A DNA stretch of 7,998 nucleotides. Origin: Octopus sinensis (taxonomy: Eukaryota). Below the pieces are notes generated by a model. The model was not told the DNA's origin. It made no database searches and was given only the letters and a program-made list of their open reading frames with translations. Numbering within the stretch: position 1 is the stretch's first letter; every line of letters begins with the position of its first letter. Location: contig NW_021828634.1 of NCBI RefSeq assembly GCF_006345805.1, positions 1-7,998 of the forward strand, read 5' to 3'. Positions 1 through 7,998 of this stretch are shown here, piece after piece. The position numbers and the translations under genes are program-made.

Positions 1-28
1 TATCTATCTATCTATCTATACATATCTG

Positions 29-97
<69 letters not shown>
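1..97. repeat. (TATC)n tetranucleotide microsatellite, running into degenerate (TA)/(TG)/(TATG) repeat to ~300
   Basis: Direct reading: near-perfect tatc tandem with one interruption at ~20-30. Confidence 0.97.
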
Positions 98-560
98 GTG
101 TATGTGTGTACGTATGTATATGTATGCATGTTTGTATGTTTGTATATCTATATCTATATGTGTGTGTGTATACACATATGTATGTATATATAAATATGTA
201 TGTATATAAAAATATGTATGCATATATGTATGTATATATATATATATATATATATGTGTATGCATATGTTTGTGTGTGAGTGTGTATGTGTGTTTGTTTT
301 TATGTGAAGCGGTTTATATTAATTTAAAGGATTACTCAACACATTTTCGTAGAGCACATCTTGTATTAATTTTTACGTGGAAAATTTTGATAGTGACCTC
401 GAAGTTTTGGCTTAGTAGCCTTCATCGGTTTGGTGAAAATTATCAAGTTAAAACATCGAAATCTCTATCGCCTTTCCTATGTGATAATTATTAAACACAT
501 GCCTTCATATACAGACACATACATACATACATGCATATATATATAAATATATATATACAT

Positions 561-700
561 ATCAGCCGAAATTGCGAGGATGATCCGGTTCTTGACTGAA
601 GATTGAAGGCTGCGAATGTCCCGTCCGTGTTTTTTGTATCATCTTCTAAATGTTTTACGCTCTTGTCCCAGTTTGTATTTTTCTACATATAATATATATA
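561..700 (+). repeat. Left terminal direct repeat of element A
   Basis: atcagccgaaattgcgagg...ctacatataatatatata matches 1401-1527 except for 2 substitutions and a 13-nt segment (611-623) missing from the right copy. Confidence 0.97.
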
Positions 701-786
701 GCAATGCCCGTACACTTTTTGGTCTTGTATGTAAGTACATATTTCTTTAAATTTGGTACGACTCTATAACACTGTCTCTCTCTCCT

Positions 787-928
787 ACATTTCTCTGCCT
801 TTCACACTTTGCACTCTACTTTGACCTGTCTCTCTCTCTCTCTCTTCCCCTCCTCCTTTTCTTGCCTCTGATTCTTTGGTCTCCTCTTCTCCCACTCTCT
901 CACATTTCTCTGTCTTTCTCACTTTGCA
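787..928 (+). repeat. Internal duplication in the element A polypyrimidine body (787-813 vs 902-928)
   Basis: acatttctctgcctttcacactttgca vs acatttctctgtctttctcactttgca, 25/27 identical, 115 bp offset. Confidence 0.85.
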
Positions 929-1400
929 TCTCACTGATTCTGTCGCCAAGCCAATCCTTGGCACGCTCTCTTTCTTCTCCCCTCTTTAATTCCTTCTTTC
1001 TCTCTCTTCTCTCCCCTTTGGTGCCTTTGTCCCTCTCTTTCTCTCTCTCTTTGATTCCTTTGCCCCCTTTAGTCTCTCTCTTCTCCTCTCACGTGACCGC
1101 TGGTCAACCAGCCTTTCAGCTTCTGACCACCGCCACGAGAACATCGTTTTCTTCGTCTGCCGAAAAAGGCATTTTTTTGCCAAATACGCCAGCTAAGCAA
1201 AGTTGAACTGTCTAAAGTCGTAAGACACCCGCTGTTTTTGTCCTGTTATTACTATTATTGTTTTTTGTATTTATATTCGTGTGGCATCGTCCGTTTTTCT
1301 GTCCTTGTTTCGTATACATTCGATCCTTTTTCCAAGAAATCTAATGCTCGTAGCTTAGTTTTTCTTTGGGGCTGGCTGGATCGGAGTATTCTCAAGATTA

Positions 1401-1510
1401 ATCAGCCGAAATTGCGAGGATGATCCGGTTCTTGACTGAAGATTGAAGGCTCCGTGTTTTTTGTATCGTCTTCTAAATGTTTTACGTTCTTGTCCCAGTT
1501 TGTATTTTTC

Positions 1511-1527
<17 letters not shown>
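1401..1527 (+). repeat. Right terminal direct repeat of element A
   Basis: Copy of 561-700 starting 840 bp downstream, followed by pure (TA)n. Confidence 0.97.
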
Positions 1528-1561
<34 letters not shown>

Positions 1562-1577
1562 CATCATCATCATCATC

Positions 1578-1617
<40 letters not shown>
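1520..1617. repeat. Compound microsatellite (TA)n-(TCA)6-(TAA)13
   Basis: Direct reading: TCA at 1561-1578, TAA at 1579-1617. Confidence 0.97.
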
Positions 1618-1619
<2 letters not shown>

Positions 1620-1799
1620 TGGGAGAATATCATTCCAAACTTACAGGGAAAATTCAATTTAGAAATACTTAAATCGCCTGTTGAACATCACTTCAGAAGA
1701 TGTTGAAACTGGATTTTAAAATGTTTCCATCCAATAAAACAATGGAAAAGTAAAAAGAAAAAACGTGTTTGTAAAAGTTATTTTTGTTTAATATCATTC

Positions 1800-1822
1800 A
1801 GTCTTTTAGTGGCCACCCTGTA
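1800..1822. mobile_element. Possible solitary Tc1/mariner-type terminal inverted repeat end
   Basis: ...gtggccaccctg|ta reads TA|CAGGGTGGCCAC on the minus strand, a typical Tc1/mariner terminus with TA target. The only partner is a 7-nt tacaggg at 1642-1648. Confidence 0.3.
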
Positions 1823-2057
1823 TATATACGCAGAGTGAGATAGTTGTAGACATACTATATATATACAAACATGCGCGCGCGCTCATACACACTTACACAC
1901 ACAAACACATACACACACGAACGCACGCGTACACACATACACATGCACGTGTATCCTGCAATCAATTGCGTATATTTCTAAAAAGCATTAATTTAAAATT
2001 TATCTAATGAACTGCATAAAAGATTTTAGAAAACCATATGAAGTGTTAAGAAAGCAT

Positions 2058-2308
2058 GCATATACATATATATATATGTATATATATATATATATGTATA
2101 TACATATATGTATATATTATATATGTATATATATATTATATCTATATATATATCTATATATACATATATATATATATATATATACACATATTATATATAC
2201 ATATATATTATATATAAAGTTAATCCAAACAAGAAAACAAAAAGACAACAACGCAAGGATGTGGAACAAATAAAGTATTATTGGACGCTCAGGAAAGAAG
2301 GGAAGAAG

Positions 2309-2363
<55 letters not shown>

Positions 2364-2539
2364 CATATATACATATTGTATAATAATATATATATGTTAT
2401 ATACATATATACATATATGTATATATATATGTAAATCTATATATATATATACATATATACATATATGTATTATATATGTAAATATATATATACATACATA
2501 TGTGTGTATATATATATATACATACATATATATATGTTG

Positions 2540-2574
<35 letters not shown>

Positions 2575-2575
2575 A
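2058..2575. repeat. Degenerate (TA)n/(TACA)/(TG)n microsatellite field, interrupted at 2216-2310
   Basis: Direct reading. Confidence 0.95.
2216..2310 (-). mobile_element. 95-bp purine-rich insert within (TA)n; probable truncated end of a microsatellite-targeting (Penelope-like) retroelement
   Basis: Complex sequence with sharp borders between two TA arrays. Recalled (unverified) as the terminus of an abundant octopus repeat. Strand is tentative. Confidence 0.45.
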
Positions 2576-2627
2576 GATAGACGCACACATTTACATGTGT
2601 ATGTGTATGCGTGCTGCGTGCGTGTGT

Positions 2628-2683
2628 AGGCAGTGCCCCAGCATGGCCGCTGTCTAATTACCGAAACAAGTAAAAGACAAAAA
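2628..2683 (+). mobile_element. Isolated SINE 3' tail, same family as 3623-3933
   Basis: aggcagtgccccagcatggcc...gaaacaagtaaaaga aligns with aggcggcgctccagcatggcc...gaaacaactaaaaga at 3874-3923. Confidence 0.85.
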
Positions 2684-2809
2684 TATATACCCGTTTAATA
2701 CGTATGTCTCTCTCTCTCTCCCTCTCTCATATATATATATATGAACACGTATATACGTACAATATGTGTTTCCACACAACGTTCCCTACAAATGCTCAAT
2801 ATGAAATTG

Positions 2810-2960
2810 TGCGTTCATAATATCCGATTATCAAAACAACATTCATAATTACGCCATTATAATTAGGGATTAAATAGAAAATATGCAAATTTCTATTGAA
2901 TAAACGGCCCATCAAGCGTCGCTTCTCTAATTACTTAATGACGTCATGAATATTAATGAG
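2810..2960. promoter_or_regulatory. Candidate enhancer: POU/homeodomain/CRE motif cluster
   Basis: ATGCAAAT 2883-2890; ATGACGTCAT 2938-2947; TAATTA at 2846, 2860 and 2928; GGATTA 2867-2872; ATGAATATTAATGAG 2946-2960. Motif evidence only. Confidence 0.35.
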
Positions 2961-3026
2961 GCTACTTAACTGAAGCCTCTTACACCTGTATATTTTGTAA
3001 ATTTTTGGTAATGTTGCTGGTGATGG

Positions 3027-3051
3027 TGTGGTGTGGTGGTGGTGGTGGTGG
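3027..3051. repeat. (GGT)n microsatellite
   Basis: Direct reading. Confidence 0.9.
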
Positions 3052-3094
3052 CGGCCTCGTTTCCTATCGTTGTTCATATTGCTTAAGTTTAGAT

Positions 3095-3483
3095 AATCCT
3101 TGTCTGATCAGACATATGATCAAAGACAACACCCCACCCATGACCATCCAGATAATTTTCTATATGCTTGAAACCCAAGTCACTGTTATTCAATACGTCG
3201 CAGTCTGAGAAAGCAGAGTAGAAGTTGAAGAATTTTTAACTGCTATTTCTTGCATGTCCATAACCTATGAGCACACTAACGCGATTCCGTCGGTGTTGTT
3301 GCTGTTGATGTAGTCTAGCCTTAGCCTATCTTTAGCTTAATCGAGTAGTCCTGTAATAAAAGTCTTTCCATCAATGACAATGCCATCGGTTATTTTTCTC
3401 AATTTAATTATGGAATGACTCCTTCGGCTTTAGAGTTCCTAGTGTGGAATTTTGGGATTATTTGGCCGCTATTTCTAAGTGGC
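3095..3483 (+). repeat. Two old, degenerate copies (~230 bp apart) of a dispersed repeat
   Basis: atgaccatcc (3140) vs atgacaatgcc (3374), and tttaactgctatttct (~3235-3250) vs tttggccgctatttct (3461-3476), in the same order and spacing. Confidence 0.4.
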
Positions 3484-3497
3484 TGCATAAACTAGTA

Positions 3498-3551
<54 letters not shown>

Positions 3552-3560
3552 CAGCAGCAG
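3498..3560. repeat. (TAG)18(CAG)3 compound microsatellite
   Basis: Direct reading. Confidence 0.97.
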
Positions 3561-3622
3561 CGGTTTTAATCTTTGTTCGATCATAATTTCGATAATTGGC
3601 CTCGTGTTGATTTTCTGTAGAA

Positions 3623-3933
3623 TGCCTTCCAGCCACATGGTTCTGGGTTCAGTCCCACTGCGTGACACCTTAGGCAAGTGTCTTCTTCTATAGCCTTGGG
3701 CCGACCAAAGCCTTGCGAGTAGATTTGGTAGACGGAAACTGAAAGAAGCTCGTCGTATATACATATATGTGTGTCAGTATTTGTTCCCCCATCACCGCCT
3801 GACAACCATTATTGGTGTATTTGCGTCCCCGTAACAAAGTCATGGGGTCGATTTCTTCAGCTAAAACCCTTCAAGGCGGCGCTCCAGCATGGCCTTGGTA
3901 AAATGGCTGAAACAACTAAAAGAATAAAAGAAT
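3623..3933 (+). mobile_element. tRNA-derived SINE (CORE-like central domain), 5'-truncated
   Basis: Pol III B-box-like gggttcagtccc at 3645-3656, then CORE-like accttaggcaagtgtctt, an internal TA/TG spacer and a tandem (taaaagaa)2 tail at 3917-3932. The tail is shared with 2628-2683. No A box seen. Resembles a common octopus SINE (from memory). Confidence 0.85.
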
Positions 3934-4134
3934 TGGTTATGTGATGCTGCCAGTACATTCTAAGAATCCTACACAAGCATCTTTGGTGGAACACATGTAG
4001 CATCTTGTTGGTTTTCATGGAACTCTTTCCATGTCTCACTGGTATAGCAGACTATTACAGAGACGGATCTTCGTGCGTAGGCCGATGATTTTGGAAATAA
4101 AGTCAATTCGTGTTCACTGGAATACAGCCGCGAC
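3931..4134 (-). pseudogene. Decayed non-LTR retrotransposon (RTE-like LINE) reverse transcriptase C-terminal fragment
   Basis: Minus-strand translation across frameshifts: VAAVFQ*..SKIIGLRTKIRLCNSLLY / YTSETW / KMLHVFHQRCLCRILRMYWQHHITN. This matches the RTE-type pattern TKxRLY..LLYGSETW..LxxFHxRCLRRILxIxWxDxITN. It contains a stop and at least two frameshifts. Confidence 0.85.
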
Positions 4135-4195
4135 ATCACAAGCTCAATTTTAGTCACCAGCTCTCACTATAGTCCTTGATACCGATGATGCGACA

Positions 4196-4413
4196 CAGAA
4201 ACGTTAGCACACCGGGCGAAATGCTTAACGGTATTTTGTCTGCCGCTACGTTCTGAGTTCAAATTCCGCCGAGGTCGACTTTGCCTTTCATACTTTCGGG
4301 GTCGATTAAATATGTACCAGTTACGCCCTGGGGTCGATATAATCGACTTTATACCTATGTCTGTCCTTGTTTGTCCACTCTATGTTTAGCCCCTTGTGGG
4401 CAATAAAGAAATA
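4196..4413 (+). mobile_element. Second tRNA-derived SINE family, nearly full length
   Basis: B box gagttcaaattcc at 4255-4267. Central ggtcgactttgcctttcatactttcggggtcgat...gtaccag block resembles conserved metazoan SINE domains. Hairpin gtcgatataatcgac at 4333-4347. The 3' aataaagaaat is repeated at 4402-4412 and 4419-4429. Confidence 0.88.
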
Positions 4414-4461
4414 TATTTAATAAAGAAATCACAGATAAAGATTTTATGACCCAGAGAATTG

Positions 4462-4582
4462 AAAAAAAAAAACTGGAAGAAAACGAAATTAATTTCATAC
4501 CTGTGGGATTTGAACCCTTGGCATGAAGATTGGCAACAAAACATCAGCTGATAATCTGTCCAACGCCGTAAGTTGTCCACCG
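4462..4582 (-). other. Degenerate tRNA-like/Pol III unit (SINE head or tRNA pseudogene)
   Basis: Minus-strand B box gggttcaaatccc (4517-4505) with a T11 run ~33 nt downstream (4472-4462). No full cloverleaf or clear A box. Confidence 0.3.
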
Positions 4583-4695
4583 TTTCTGCGCATTCGAACA
4601 GTTCACGCAAGTGTGTACAGGAAAAAAAATATAGTTATAATTTAGTACAATTTGATGACGGTTTCCATGTGTATTGGTGTGCTTAGGGAAAAGAC

Positions 4696-4880
4696 TGTGT
4701 GTGAGTGAGTGTGTTTGTGTGTATGTATGTACGCTTGTGTGTATGTGTGTGTGTGTGTGTGTGTGTCTATTGCACTCATTGATTGATTGATTGTGTAGGT
4801 GTGTGTTAGCGAGAATTTTGTACTGGTCTTTCGTATTAAAATTATATATGTATATATGTATTTACATACACACACACACA

Positions 4881-4912
<32 letters not shown>

Positions 4913-4980
4913 TACACACACGCATATATATATATATAATGTACATATATATGTAAGAATATGTGAATATAATGTCTATG

Positions 4981-5012
<32 letters not shown>

Positions 5013-5152
5013 AGTATGTGTGTGTATGTACATATGTACTTGTGTGCGTATACGAAGAGACGCCCACATATAAAAACACATGCATATAGTCATACTTGCA
5101 TTGATTTATATGTAAATCTGTGTGTGTGTGTGTGCATGTATGTATATATATA
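4696..5152. repeat. Mixed (TG)n/(CA)n/(TA)n microsatellite field
   Basis: Direct reading; includes (TG)n at ~4744-4765, (CA)n at ~4868-4920 and (TA)n at ~4986-5012. Confidence 0.93.
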
Positions 5153-5260
5153 AAATTAAAGTATTTCTGAATACAAAAATGACTAAATTTGTTTAGCAAA
5201 TGTTTAAAATTTAATATATTCTCCGTCTCACTCCCTTCTCACTCTCACTCTCTCCTCAAG

Positions 5261-5261
<1 letters not shown>

Positions 5262-5319
<58 letters not shown>

Positions 5320-5508
5320 TTGTATATGTATATGTATATGTATATATATGTATATATATATATATATTATATATACGTATGTATGTATATATATATACAT
5401 GTATGTATATACTGTAAGACACACACATATACATATATACAGGCATACATGCACACACTGACAAGCACGCATACACATACACACACACACACAGCTATGT
5501 ATGTGTGT
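5262..5508. repeat. (TA)n, (TATATG)n and (CA)n microsatellite field
   Basis: Direct reading. Confidence 0.95.
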
Positions 5509-5729
5509 AAAAGGAACGAATTTTTTTGCGTCTATTTCCATATTTGCTCACACCTTGTACATTCACAGATTAAATTTTACCTAAAGAGTAAAAAAAATAT
5601 ACATATATAATACAATAAATAAATAGAAGCTATATATGGTTTTCAAATATTAAATATGATTGCTATGGTAAAAAAAAATCTATGTAGCTATATACTTGAT
5701 ACGAATATAATCAAATACACATAAGCATA

Positions 5730-6079
5730 AACATATACATGTACAGATACACTTATATACATACATACACATATATACAAACATATATATATATATATAT
5801 AAATATTATATATATATATATATATGATTTTATATATTATACACATATGCACATATATTCATATAGAAAGATATAGGTGTTATAATTAAGTCAATAAAAG
5901 AATACGAATAGTTCTTCTCATTCAATCTATAAATATGTATTTATATATATTTACGTACATACATGTATATGTGTGCGTGTGTGTGTGCATACATACACAT
6001 GTACGCACACACGCACTCATACATATACATATATATATATATATGTATGTATATATATATGTATATGTATATATATATG

Positions 6080-6113
<34 letters not shown>

Positions 6114-6135
6114 AAATATATATATATATGTATAA
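5730..6135. repeat. Degenerate (TA)n/(CA)n low-complexity field, with a short unique spacer at ~5865-5930
   Basis: Direct reading. Confidence 0.9.
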
Positions 6136-6138
6136 TTA

Positions 6139-6333
6139 TAATGCTTACAGCTTAGTTTTTTTTCTTGGGGCTGGCCGAGTTGGAGCAATATCAGAATTGA
6201 ACAGCCGAAATTTGCTTATGATGATTCGGTGTCTGACGAAGAATTGAAGGCTTCGAATGATTTGTCTGGTTCCGTGTTCGTCCCTTCCTGTATTTCACGT
6301 TCATTATATATAAAAACATTCATTCTTATATAT
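6139..6333 (+). repeat. Left terminal direct repeat of element B (195 nt)
   Basis: Matches 6845-7041 with 7 small indels and no substitutions. Confidence 0.97.
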
Positions 6334-6844
6334 TGCGGCGTTACGTGCACCCCCCCGTTGTTTGTCCAATTTGAAACCCTGCACGACTTCTATACACACT
6401 GTCTTTCCTACCCGCCATTGCTTCTCACCAAACTTTTGGCGCCCTCCGATTCTTCCCCTCTCTTCCTCCCATCCTTCTCCCTCTTCCTCCCATCCTCCTT
6501 AATCCCTTCTTTCTCTTTTCTCTTGGTCACTGATTCTGTCCCCTGCCTTCCACCCTTTGATTCCCTCTCTCTCTGTCTCTCTTTCTCTCTCTCTCCTGCA
6601 ACCTGCTGCTTCTTAAACCATTCTGTTGGCCATCGTATCTCGACCAACATGTGTCCCCGCTAACCGAAACGGTATTATTTCTACGCCAGCTATGTTGTTG
6701 TTGTTTTTGTCTCATTTGGTCTAAAGTCGTATGACACCACCGTTATATATATTTTGTTTATTCATTACTGTTTTCAATTACGTTTTCGTCTCTTGTATTT
6801 ACATCCGTCTTGTGCGTTCACATTCCTGTCTTCTACAAGAAATC

Positions 6845-7041
6845 TAATGCTTACGCTTAGTTTTTTTTTTCTTGGGGCTGGCCGAGTTGGAGCAAATATC
6901 AGAATTGAACAGCCGAAATTTGCTATGATGATTCGGTGTCTGACTGAAGATTGAAGGCTTCGAATGATTTGTCTGTGTTCCGTGTTCGTCCCTTCCTGTA
7001 TTTCACGTTCATTATATATAAAAACATTCATTCTTATATAT
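6845..7041 (+). repeat. Right terminal direct repeat of element B (197 nt)
   Basis: Copy of 6139-6333, starting 706 bp downstream. Confidence 0.97.
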
Positions 7042-7044
7042 ATG

Positions 7045-7076
<32 letters not shown>

Positions 7077-7087
7077 ATTATATATAT

Positions 7088-7166
<79 letters not shown>

Positions 7167-7176
7167 ATATATATTA

Positions 7177-7209
<33 letters not shown>

Positions 7210-7215
7210 ATATAA
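7036..7215. repeat. (TA)n then (TG)n microsatellite
   Basis: Direct reading. Confidence 0.96.
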
Positions 7216-7766
7216 ATATTCGTACTGATGTACCTACTTACAACCTACATACCGACATAGGTGCGTTAATTAATTCTATACAAGAATATGCATTGTTCTA
7301 TTTTACGCTCGTATAGTATACATGTAGATATGTTTTTATATATTTTTGTATGTATGTAAAAAGAAAAAAGAGAGAGAGAGAAAGGGCGACAGAGAAAGTG
7401 AGAGAAATACATACATATATTCATATCTGTGATATATAGGATATATATATGTGTGATATATATAACATATAATATTGGTATGATAAATAATTTATATATA
7501 CACATTTTAAATTTATATATGCATATTTTAAATTATATATAATTTATATATATACATATTTTATATGATATATAAGATATATAAGTATACATATATATGA
7601 TAATATATACATGTGAGTGTATATGTACAGGGGTTTCTGTGCATCTATATACGCACACGCATATCTACACACATGCATAAATACATATATTTGAATAATA
7701 AGGTATCGGCACAATATCTCGATATGCCGTTGCTCATAGTAAAAACATATGCTGTATTAGTCTTAT

Positions 7767-7850
7767 TTATGAAGGAGAGTTCAGATGCAAAAATTTCATT
7801 TACCTGAGAAAATTTTTGCACTAAGAAACTTAAAAAAATATCCTTCATGA
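7767..7850. other. Nested imperfect inverted repeat (long hairpin)
   Basis: tgcaaaaattt (7786-7796) pairs perfectly with aaatttttgca (7810-7820); atgaagga (7769-7776) pairs with tccttcat (7841-7848). Confidence 0.75.
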
Positions 7851-7900
7851 TTTCCCTTAAATTTTTTTAAATCGTCAAGCAAATGAATTAACTACATGTA

Positions 7901-7909
7901 TATATGTGA

Positions 7910-7941
<32 letters not shown>

Positions 7942-7943
7942 GT
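7901..7943. repeat. (TG)n microsatellite
   Basis: Direct reading. Confidence 0.95.
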
Positions 7944-7998
7944 AGCAGAATGAAAGAATCTGATACGGCATTATATATTTGAAAGCATGATCAGAAAT

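Follow-up and report, generated by a model that had tools for sequence, protein, structure and literature searches.

What are the two elements that sit embedded in (TA)n in a 7,998-nt stretch of the Octopus sinensis genome (contig NW_021828634.1, positions 1 to 7,998; hereafter the window), and how are they copied? A sequence-only reading had described each as a truncated unit followed by a full monomer, with 140 nt (A) or 195 nt (B) of the upstream unit retained. Alignment agrees with this partial-tandem layout, which amounts to 1.17 and 1.28 monomers, respectively. The features of the two loci, members of what we call families A and B, are as follows.

517-562: (TA)n-rich tract flanking the 5' end of A
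561..700, + strand: family A 5'-truncated upstream copy (pseudo-LTR); starts 9 nt 3' of the predicted cut, within the 5'-end pile-up zone
701..1527, + strand: family A full monomer, non-coding; GC-rich head, pyrimidine tract, hairpin, putative ribozyme, 3' end into (TA)n
701..735, + strand: family A head segment; about 25-35 nt recurring as an optional 3' tail at L023, L217 and L230
1333..1368, + strand: hairpin directly 5' of the putative ribozyme; present when A and B are folded, and recognized by eye in families F and I
1514..1559, unstranded: (TA)n target microsatellite at the 3' end of A
6019-6134: (TA)n-rich tract flanking the 5' end of B
6139..6333, + strand: family B 5'-truncated upstream copy; whole putative ribozyme copy, its core with 1-nt indels (possibly read errors)
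6334..7041, + strand: full-length, non-coding monomer (about 715 nt) of family B, a young family
7035..7174, unstranded: (TA)n target microsatellite at the 3' end of B

In A, positions 561-700 and 1401-1527 agree in 125 of the 127 columns aligned, the downstream copy having a 13-nt deletion, and in B, positions 6139-6333 match 6845-7041 at 192/192 columns, with several 1-2-nt indels. A and B themselves share only ~78% identity across a 129-nt core and less similarity further upstream, so the elements are, as had been claimed, near-identical internally and diverged from one another. The monomer ends show no terminal inverted repeats, and the long open reading frames of the window are microsatellite or CT-repeat frames, which bears out the earlier statement that neither inverted repeats nor a credible ORF is present. 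The short TA linker assigned to each junction does exist, but in B it is a fixed junction sequence in most tandem copies and not a variable microsatellite. The duplications are not an assembly quirk, because the head-to-tail junction recurs at many loci and in contigs of 2/4 independent public runs. The family A monomer measures ~850 nt in other copies.

A and B are dispersed, non-coding, thousand-copy families: their core has 2,842 exact matches in the genome, against 0 for the control. Family B is young (~2% diverged). Where a unit does not continue into another head, its 3' end runs into (TA)n or (CA)n in 77/85 A units and in 61/61 B units; continuation into the next head was seen for 14/99 A and 34/95 B units. 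The combination of a fixed right end at (TA)n and variable left truncation, on which the original proposal leaned, is thus seen in both families. Inverted, 5'-truncated adjacent copies were found at L021, L023, L038/L053, L230, and L309, and tails of about 25-35 nt at L023, L038, L217, L230, and L200; in position-ordered samples, a clear tail was present in 2/99 A units (L217 and L230, with L228 possible) and 1/91 B units. Penelope-like elements (PLEs) are characterized by pseudo-LTRs, inversions, and optional 30-40-bp tails (PMC8557442, PMC11167929), and A and B display partial tandems with a fixed 3' end, inverted truncated copies, and a tail. Their anatomy is a well-supported Penelope-like insertion signature, and the ends, inversions, and tails together lend good support to the suggestion of non-autonomous, RNA-based, PLE-type mobilization.

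The element had also been treated as hammerhead-free, and here the earlier view has to be revised. Judged by sequence, the conserved 3' core of A and B contains all of the hammerhead core strands in the non-circular order site, GAAA, CUGANGA, which is that of type SGC. The 5' strand of stem II lies upstream of the site block, leaving the chain open at A9|G10.1; we refer to this arrangement as split-SGC. The motif is laid out in the window as follows.

1370..1452, + strand: family A split-SGC hammerhead, whole motif
1370-1375, stem II 5'; 1376-1382, helix x; 1386-1390, stem III 3'; predicted cut after 1391
1392-1397, stem I 5'; 1402-1407, stem II 3'; 1408-1411, GAAA; 1411-1415, stem III 5'
1422-1428, x'; 1430-1435, stem I 3'; 1436-1442, CUGAAGA
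6876..6963, + strand: family B split-SGC hammerhead, whole motif, intact
6876-6880, stem II 5'; 6882-6888, x; 6892-6897, stem III 3'; predicted cut after 6898
6899-6903, stem I 5'; 6910-6914, stem II 3'; 6915-6918, GAAA; 6918-6923, stem III 5'
6930-6936, x'; 6939-6943, stem I 3'; 6944-6950, CUGAAGA; 6957-6963, y'

The A motif of the window is decayed (stem III is mutated and a deletion follows the core) and fails our descriptor, which is passed by 31/46 other full-motif copies of A, 68/76 of B, and 26/37 of family F. The predicted core has CUGANGA, GAAA, an NUH site, and stems I and III joined directly, and its blocks run S, G, C, stems I and II being connected by a helix. A stem II strand directly after CUGANGA, with at most 1-2 inserted bases as in strict SGC, was not found: a contiguous stem II would have 0-1 bp in A, B, and C, 2 bp in family I and Naiad, and 3-4 bp in F, G, and H, the last three of which could build it after a 1-nt bulge. 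The upstream stem II spans 4-6 bp in the representatives compared. The putative ribozyme is, on this reading, SGC-like in its working and not a strict SGC member. Nor does it form the circularly permuted, pseudoknot-free three-way junction of types I, II, and III, from which its strand order differs. An Rfam scan of the window missed it, returning no hammerhead at E<=1 and only microsatellite-driven miRNA matches, all under the gathering score. By eye, the core was also compared with type I/II/III hammerheads and with HDV-like, SECIS, and C/D-box structures, and each was rejected since the needed stems are missing.

Sequence-unrelated families F, G, H, I, and J have the same strand order with different stems, which differ in compensated fashion from family to family. 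The catalytic core bases are all kept across these families, N7 alone varying, and A9 is followed by U or A in 10/10 representatives, these being the two bases that the CChMVd hammerhead tolerates at this position (PMC3705267). The SGC core arose in 1/2,000 dinucleotide shuffles of A and 0/2,000 of B. In a set of 14 different sequences from A and C, pairing is found in 92.9% of cells, compared to 14-45% in slid controls, and 9/27 pairs have changed on both sides; this count covers two related families, from which the structure was itself derived. B was excluded because the aligner misplaced its compensated indels, which lie in stems I and III. The combination of upstream stem II and helix x is weak in individual old families, being equaled in 55-57/2,000 shuffles for one C copy, G, I, and Naiad and in 298/2,000 for J. 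Helix x comprises 7 bp in the pair count; the 8-10 bp obtained for A, B, and C in the comparison of representatives is overstated, as overlap with stem II was allowed there. Nested folding gave no support (z of 0.08, 0.53, -0.36, and 0.93), pseudoknots lying beyond that model. About six isolated matches of a looser descriptor (L079, L132, L150, L204, L214, and L229) have long spacers and look like chance.

If the RNA cleaves itself before it is copied, 5' ends of genomic copies should gather at the predicted cut. We kept 100 A, 94 B, and 71 F units, leaving out those with short flanks or duplicate contexts; the A mapping included no reference for a second A subfamily, which touches only ends beyond about -147. 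In A, 5' ends fall at 0 to +20 nt from the predicted cut in 26/86 copies at risk versus 38/621 in other bins, and in held-out A copies the 21 nt 3' of the cut contain 18/59 versus 28/421 (p=7e-7). Family F, for which the window of positions was fixed beforehand, gave 16/60 versus 28/432 (p=1e-5). The pile-up is weak in B (7/87 versus 19/778, p=0.011), where this is not the best window. The pile-up suggests cleavage in vivo at the predicted cut, and it is likely that A/B RNA self-cleaves by means of a knotted, non-circularly permuted hammerhead. In most copies (60/86 in A, 44/60 in F, and 80/87 in B), the predicted cut is read through; therefore, any cutting would be partial or reversed.

We consider the best explanation, with a probability of roughly 0.7, to be that these are non-coding families with a knotted, likely self-cutting hammerhead, which are likely copied into (TA)n by a borrowed Penelope-like reverse transcriptase (RT) and endonuclease. 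As non-coding tandem units that each carry a predicted hammerhead, they resemble non-LTR retrozymes, with a hammerhead that is not type I. In the model that we propose, a tandem copy would be transcribed on the + strand, and the ribozyme would cut after position 17, producing RNAs with stem I at their 5' end; two cuts would free a monomer, which could be ligated into a circle. The PLE protein would nick (TA)n and prime cDNA synthesis at the fixed 3' end or, where a tail results, ~30 nt further, in the next head. On cut RNA, RT would run off at the cut, leaving copies of ~150 nt; RNA that is uncut or circular would be read through, giving 1.2- to 3.x-mers, and priming on both strands could generate the inverted pairs.

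Which PLE supplied the enzyme? The proposed link to Naiads is supported by shared ribozyme geometry: the split-SGC arrangement occurs at the 3' end of the RT-encoding Naiad of this genome and, read by eye, at the 3' ends of published coral, ctenophore, and octopus Naiads. The Naiad motif has 223 exact matches in the genome, with RT sequence upstream on the same strand, and 13/25 copies have a stem III of 4-5, a stem I of 6-8, and an upstream stem II of 5-7 bp, ~20 nt before the cut, matching the geometry of family A. Neither A nor B is itself a Naiad. No DNA homology of A, B, C, or F to the 50 GIY-YIG loci, which comprise Neptune-type and other PLEs, or to the Naiad loci examined was found, neighboring insertions aside (PLE ORFs beside L111, L178, L324, and L335 were taken as such and rejected as partners), and an ORF with an N-terminal GIY-YIG, a CxC linker, and RT is absent from the monomers and from the regions upstream of 30 C, 30 F, 16 H, and 16 I loci; upstream extension of these four families revealed neither an RT nor an endonuclease. 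Most likely, Naiads gave rise to the families and were the first to mobilize them. Their present driver may be a Neptune, since all Naiad RT matches found (77 and 128, with a longest open frame of 320 aa; Naiad 11% diverged) are decayed while family B is young. That a Neptune-type PLE now acts in trans on the same element, with the ribozyme only recording Naiad ancestry, is a serious contender, if somewhat short of an even chance. Many copies recovered by the GIY-YIG search have open frames of 760-880 aa, those read have RT, a CxxC linker, and GIY-YIG at the C-terminus, median divergence is ~6%, Neptune-type loci terminate at (TA)n and carry tails (L086 and L089), and no intact Naiad was among the scored candidates. 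On the other hand, Neptune-type loci share no sequence with A, B, C, or F, the hammerhead-like motifs of their 3' UTRs follow the type I order, and a young Naiad lineage may be unseen, given that 150/5,029 GIY-YIG candidates were scored and 50 loci (30 + 20) read.

The multi-monomer insertions could also come from linear read-through of tandem donors or from template jumping, with no circular RNA. We regard this as a tenable but rather doubtful account. Tandem loci are common, and the head-to-tail joint in public contigs is expected equally from a circle and a tandem transcript: contigs of runs that we guessed to be RNA contain family B, including this joint in X6 and X13, and contigs cannot show ends, strand, or circles. 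Yet a linear donor cannot give a longer daughter, and arrays in the young family reach three monomers plus a part (L052 and L307); moreover, monomers within a locus are near-identical, differing by 0.4% as opposed to 1.6-2.0% between loci (8 pairs). Both points are arguments, not proof, in favor of the circle.

Another possibility is a genuine knotted structure without cleavage activity, or with such activity only as a dimer or with a protein, that serves to bind protein or stall RT. The pile-up would then reflect stalling or microhomology, and several of its ends indeed adjoin TA-like bases; read-through by most copies and the weak B signal fit this view, as does the finding that a Poseidon hammerhead needed a protein for cleavage and was not required for insertion in vitro (PMC11167929). 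Stalling, however, is expected at the part of the structure that RT encounters first (+21 to +62), and 5' ends are at background there; they fall away just 5' of the predicted cut, and TA/AT-richer bins contain fewer of them. Together with retention of the catalytic core, N7 excepted, in unrelated families, this makes a non-cleaving structure improbable. A non-autonomous Helitron-like or other DNA element with tandems made by rolling-circle DNA replication would be non-coding, head-to-tail, and associated with microsatellites, but is largely refuted by copies that vary in 5' truncation and share a fixed 3' end, by inverted truncated pairs, by tails, by the missing terminal inverted repeats, and by an RNA-level catalytic core in common with an RT-encoding element (Helitron end motifs were compared by eye).

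Beyond self-cleavage and borrowed enzymes, we lean, with a little less assurance, toward a wider interpretation: a fourth hammerhead permutation, opened in the core at A9|G10.1 and triply knotted, would be active in animals; it would be the missing Naiad ribozyme, from ctenophores and corals to octopus (with type-CSG in nematode Naiads), and would define a large, hitherto unrecognized class of 700-850-nt retrozymes copying from RNA circles. Non-circular hammerheads, so far environmental and without a host, would thereby be placed in an animal genome with a biological context, accompanied by a genome-wide footprint of the predicted cut. The pile-up may offer a rare indication that a hammerhead associated with a PLE is at work on the RNA undergoing reverse transcription. 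The split-SGC form likely explains why Naiads were thought to lack a hammerhead, offering a testable answer both to this apparent absence and to the identity of the "half-core" matches, and standard descriptors may overlook whole retrozyme families.

The closest structural relatives are the type-SGC and type-CSG hammerheads (Eckert et al. 2023, PMC10085705), with which the predicted A/B motif shares the order site, GAAA, CUGANGA, all core bases, a stem I-II linker of 1-6 nt, and an additional helix (x) that connects stems I and II at their far ends. The strand circle is the same but opened at A9|G10.1 in A/B, so that helix x and the 5' strand of stem II come upstream of the site block and CUGANGA has no stem II after it; A/B also add helix y, tying the post-core strand to stem III. 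Blocks were assumed to be unsplittable, a rule that the predicted break contradicts, and SGC and CSG had been found only in meta-omic data with no known organism (PMC10085705), whereas the motif described here is genomic and animal, with thousands of copies.

Metazoan non-LTR retrozymes (PMC7761336; bioRxiv 10.64898/2026.07.22.740005) are likewise non-coding, tandem, hammerhead-bearing units thought to be mobilized by PLEs and to produce cDNA exceeding one unit in length. They are shorter and have type I hammerheads, in contrast to the 700-850 nt, permuted hammerhead, and PLE tails and inversions of A/B; circular RNA has been shown for them, while A/B are known here from DNA copies and contigs. 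Non-autonomous Chlamys elements such as MRC1 (PMC8557442) are also PLE derivatives with pseudo-LTRs and multicopy head-to-tail insertions, but they share 3' sequence with an autonomous family, have no reported ribozyme, and belong to green algae. Naiad PLEs (Craig et al. 2021, PMC8557442), described as having no canonical hammerhead and only unexplained "core" and "half-core" matches, differ from A/B in that the latter lack an ORF and, at the DNA level, show no detectable homology to the catalogued octopus Naiad; they resemble A/B in (TA)n targeting, partial tandems, inversions, tails, and a predicted split-SGC motif ~90-150 nt from the 3' end.

The sequence-only reading had described internal duplications in the two non-coding, (TA)n-embedded repeats of the window, A and B, each a truncated copy followed by a full monomer, and both duplications were confirmed. 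These and other features of the window are as follows:

561-1527: repeat A
731-736: GTAAGT, a splice-donor-like hexamer in the head (5' segment) of the A monomer
1616-1675: short repeat end adjoining the microsatellite after A, in 4 of 364 loci compared
2213-2312, minus strand: truncated 3'-terminal stretch of a further TA-embedded family, in 9 of 364 loci compared
3606-3915, with a fragment at 2621-2700: dispersed repeat, matched in 103 and 51 of 364 loci compared; presumably SINE-like
4176-4420: another dispersed repeat, matched in 63 of 364 loci compared
6139-7041: repeat B

Words similar to the splice-donor-like hexamer occur in two further families, C and F; Penelope-like elements (PLEs) retain 5' UTR introns.

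The 2.72-Gb genome holds 3,495 candidate copies of A and 1,580 of B (40 scored for each). A pattern for their shared core had 2,842 exact genomic matches, versus none for the control pattern, while 3'-end patterns matched 1,730 (A) and 906 (B) times genome-wide. Anatomy was read from the 30 best loci per family plus position-ordered sets (the first 100 listed matches for A, 94 of the first 100 for B). One plan was common to both samples, a constant 3' end and a varying 5' end, the pattern that the sequence-only reading had named as support for its model. The 3' end abutted a TA or CA repeat in 77 of 85 A units and all 61 B units, and passed into the head of the next monomer in 14/99 A and 34/95 B units. 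The longest arrays comprised three monomers and a partial one (locus L307); inverted truncated copies were present, and some copies bore tails of ~25-35 nt built from head sequence. At one locus (L273), a B array is followed by a second short copy sharing the 5' truncation point of the array's first part. Passages of PMC8557442 give a fixed 3' end, variable 5' end, tandems, inversions and tails as PLE features, and PMC11167929 attributes such features to RT starting internally and to priming on both strands. This anatomy supports the PLE-type mobilization suggested earlier for A and B, which we regard as highly likely for the families.

The same insertion plan recurs in the older or unrelated families C, F, H and I, with no RT or endonuclease found upstream of their loci. 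Loci L352, L122, L387, L366 and L244 represent the non-coding, (TA)n-targeting families F, G, H, I and J, all built on this ribozyme plan; among them, F is a young, tandem family about 850 nt long (2,230 candidates). Two public sequencing runs (X1 and X6) contain contigs from a related family with shorter pre-ribozyme spacing, and family B words occur in runs labelled as eight different organisms.

When A, B and C were read side by side, the three strands of a hammerhead appeared, the cleavage site first, then GAAA, then CUGANGA. Stem III links A15.1 with U16.1 and is followed by one unpaired base; stem I pairs the strand after that base with the bases directly preceding CUGANGA. The stem II partner of the pre-GAAA strand sits ~20-27 nt upstream of the predicted cleavage position (the cut, after position 17), not after CUGANGA. 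In dinucleotide shuffles of the monomers, the SGC core arose in 1/2,000 (A) and 0/2,000 (B). A set of 14 distinct sequences (7 from A and 8 from C before removal of duplicates) had 92.9% of cells paired, a pairing level attained by 0/500 shuffles; slid partners paired at 14-45%. In this set, 9 of 27 pairs had changed on both sides. Independent pair-change events are few, since the comparison covers two families only. Families F, G, H, I and J and a Naiad (a PLE group) preserve the strand order despite unrelated stem sequences, which is stronger support for the motif than the A/C pair count. Against the motif, nested folding detected no excess stability, the upstream stem II pairing taken alone is weak in old families, and a short contiguous stem II is an alternative in F, G and H. 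In the window, the downstream B ribozyme alone is intact, the A copy having decayed. We put the probability that the predicted split-core hammerhead is an active ribozyme at about 0.75. In a longer copy of the family at 2213-2312 (L146), a hammerhead-like motif has its strands arranged as in type I.

Insertion 5' ends would be expected to cluster just 3' of the cut if the RNA copied by RT had been cleaved there. Among the 86 A units at risk, 26 had 5' ends at 0 to +20 nt, counted 3' from the cut, versus 38/621 across ten other 21-nt bins. This bin was picked after looking at part of the data, so held-out loci provide the fair test: 18/59 in the bin versus 28/421 elsewhere (p=7e-7). For F, with the test fixed beforehand and 71 of the first 100 matches, the counts were 16/60 and 28/432 (p=1e-5); for B, they were 7/87 and 19/778 (p=0.011), with a different window of offsets equally high. 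Bins richer in TA/AT dinucleotides held fewer 5' ends, and bins where RT would meet structure first were at background. The window's own truncated A copy begins at +9. Most copies read through the cut site, and therefore much of the template was uncut or re-ligated. At L104 (about 1100-1500 in the orientation of the element), a piece of another PLE family lies inverted and is fused directly to an A copy beginning 11 nt past the cut, a joint that could possibly reflect a template switch between two RNAs.

B monomers differ by 0.4% within one locus versus 1.6-2.0% between loci (8 pairs), and this near-identity within a locus fits repeated copying of one template. Circles are the accepted retrozyme model (PMC7761336, in part), and we give a circular RNA template about even odds. 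Tandem read-through or template jumping may instead be responsible, public contigs fitting circles and tandem read-through alike.

Canonical hammerheads are absent from Naiads according to PMC8557442, which also lists core and half-core matches left unexplained, the Octopus family among them. The Octopus Naiad consensus in that paper has the split-SGC motif (the strand order above, stem II 5' strand upstream) at its 3' end. Copies in this genome match that end. The genomic motif had 223 exact matches; 16 of 25 copies passed the stem I and III test, 13 with the upstream stem II as well. RT sequence lay upstream in 1/20 extended loci; starting from RT, 14/30 loci aligned to the motif-bearing 3' region and 2/30 reached a passing motif within the flank taken. 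The Naiad label for genomic copies denotes a by-eye match to the published sequence, independent of the N-terminal endonuclease. For all but one of the 54 published Naiad consensus sequences (53), the final ~350 nt were inspected by eye only, without computation. Six Naiads displayed the split-SGC form (two octopus, three coral and one ctenophore, the last with a stem I of just 2 bp), and a squid consensus probably does as well. Six nematode ends (1-, 2- and 3-Nbra, Hcon, Hpol and Asuum) displayed a contiguous type-CSG form, of which PMC10085705 gives just two natural sequences in its main text. Neither form was seen in this stretch of the remaining Naiads, many of which have incomplete consensus sequences or may carry the motif further upstream. 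Bivalve and hemichordate Naiads (PMC8557442 File S5) share a conserved GC-rich motif directly after the stop codon, not a hammerhead and possibly another ribozyme.

The Naiad RT matches (77 and 128) are all decayed, with a longest open frame of 320 aa. Copies of the Naiad are about 11% diverged and those of A about 9%, compared with about 6% in the main Neptune family and about 2% in B; A could have moved together with the known Naiad, which cannot easily be the mover of B and F. An unseen young Naiad lineage and Neptune elements with intact frames are about evenly placed as the current driver, no DNA homology having been found that settles the partner between them. Loci L061-L090 and L315-L334 represent a minimum of six PLE families of Neptune type, plus one that lacks the CxxC linker; open frames of ~780 aa occur in some of them, and variant hammerhead cores in type-I order in the 3' UTR of some.

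Our literature search, mostly without subscription papers, turned up no description of permuted hammerheads in animal elements. In the parts consulted, a 2026 retrozyme preprint (bioRxiv 10.64898/2026.07.22.740005) confines its hammerhead search to type I, and PMC13725137 cites just two papers for other permutations, PMC10085705 of 2023 and another on fungal agents. The families may already be named in Dfam or Repbase, and the supplements of PMC10085705 may contain related variants, our comparison being with its main text. The feature is real and more interesting than first flagged, combining known kinds (a non-autonomous PLE or retrozyme and an SGC hammerhead) in a new variant. The order site, GAAA, CUGANGA is type SGC, known in that main text from meta-omic data only. 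In contrast to that type, the octopus motif has its stem II 5' strand upstream of the cut rather than 3' of CUGANGA; an extra helix, x, extends from this strand and pairs beside stem I, as the counterpart of the stem I-II helix of PMC10085705. With stem II placed upstream and running on into helix x, the motif is the SGC/CSG strand circle opened at A9|G10.1. The base following A9 is U or A in 10/10 representatives; according to passages of PMC3705267, a natural hammerhead accepts an additional A or U at this junction but neither C nor G. The novelty lies in the presence, in an animal genome, of a predicted hammerhead that is split-core and non-circular and is shared with Naiads.
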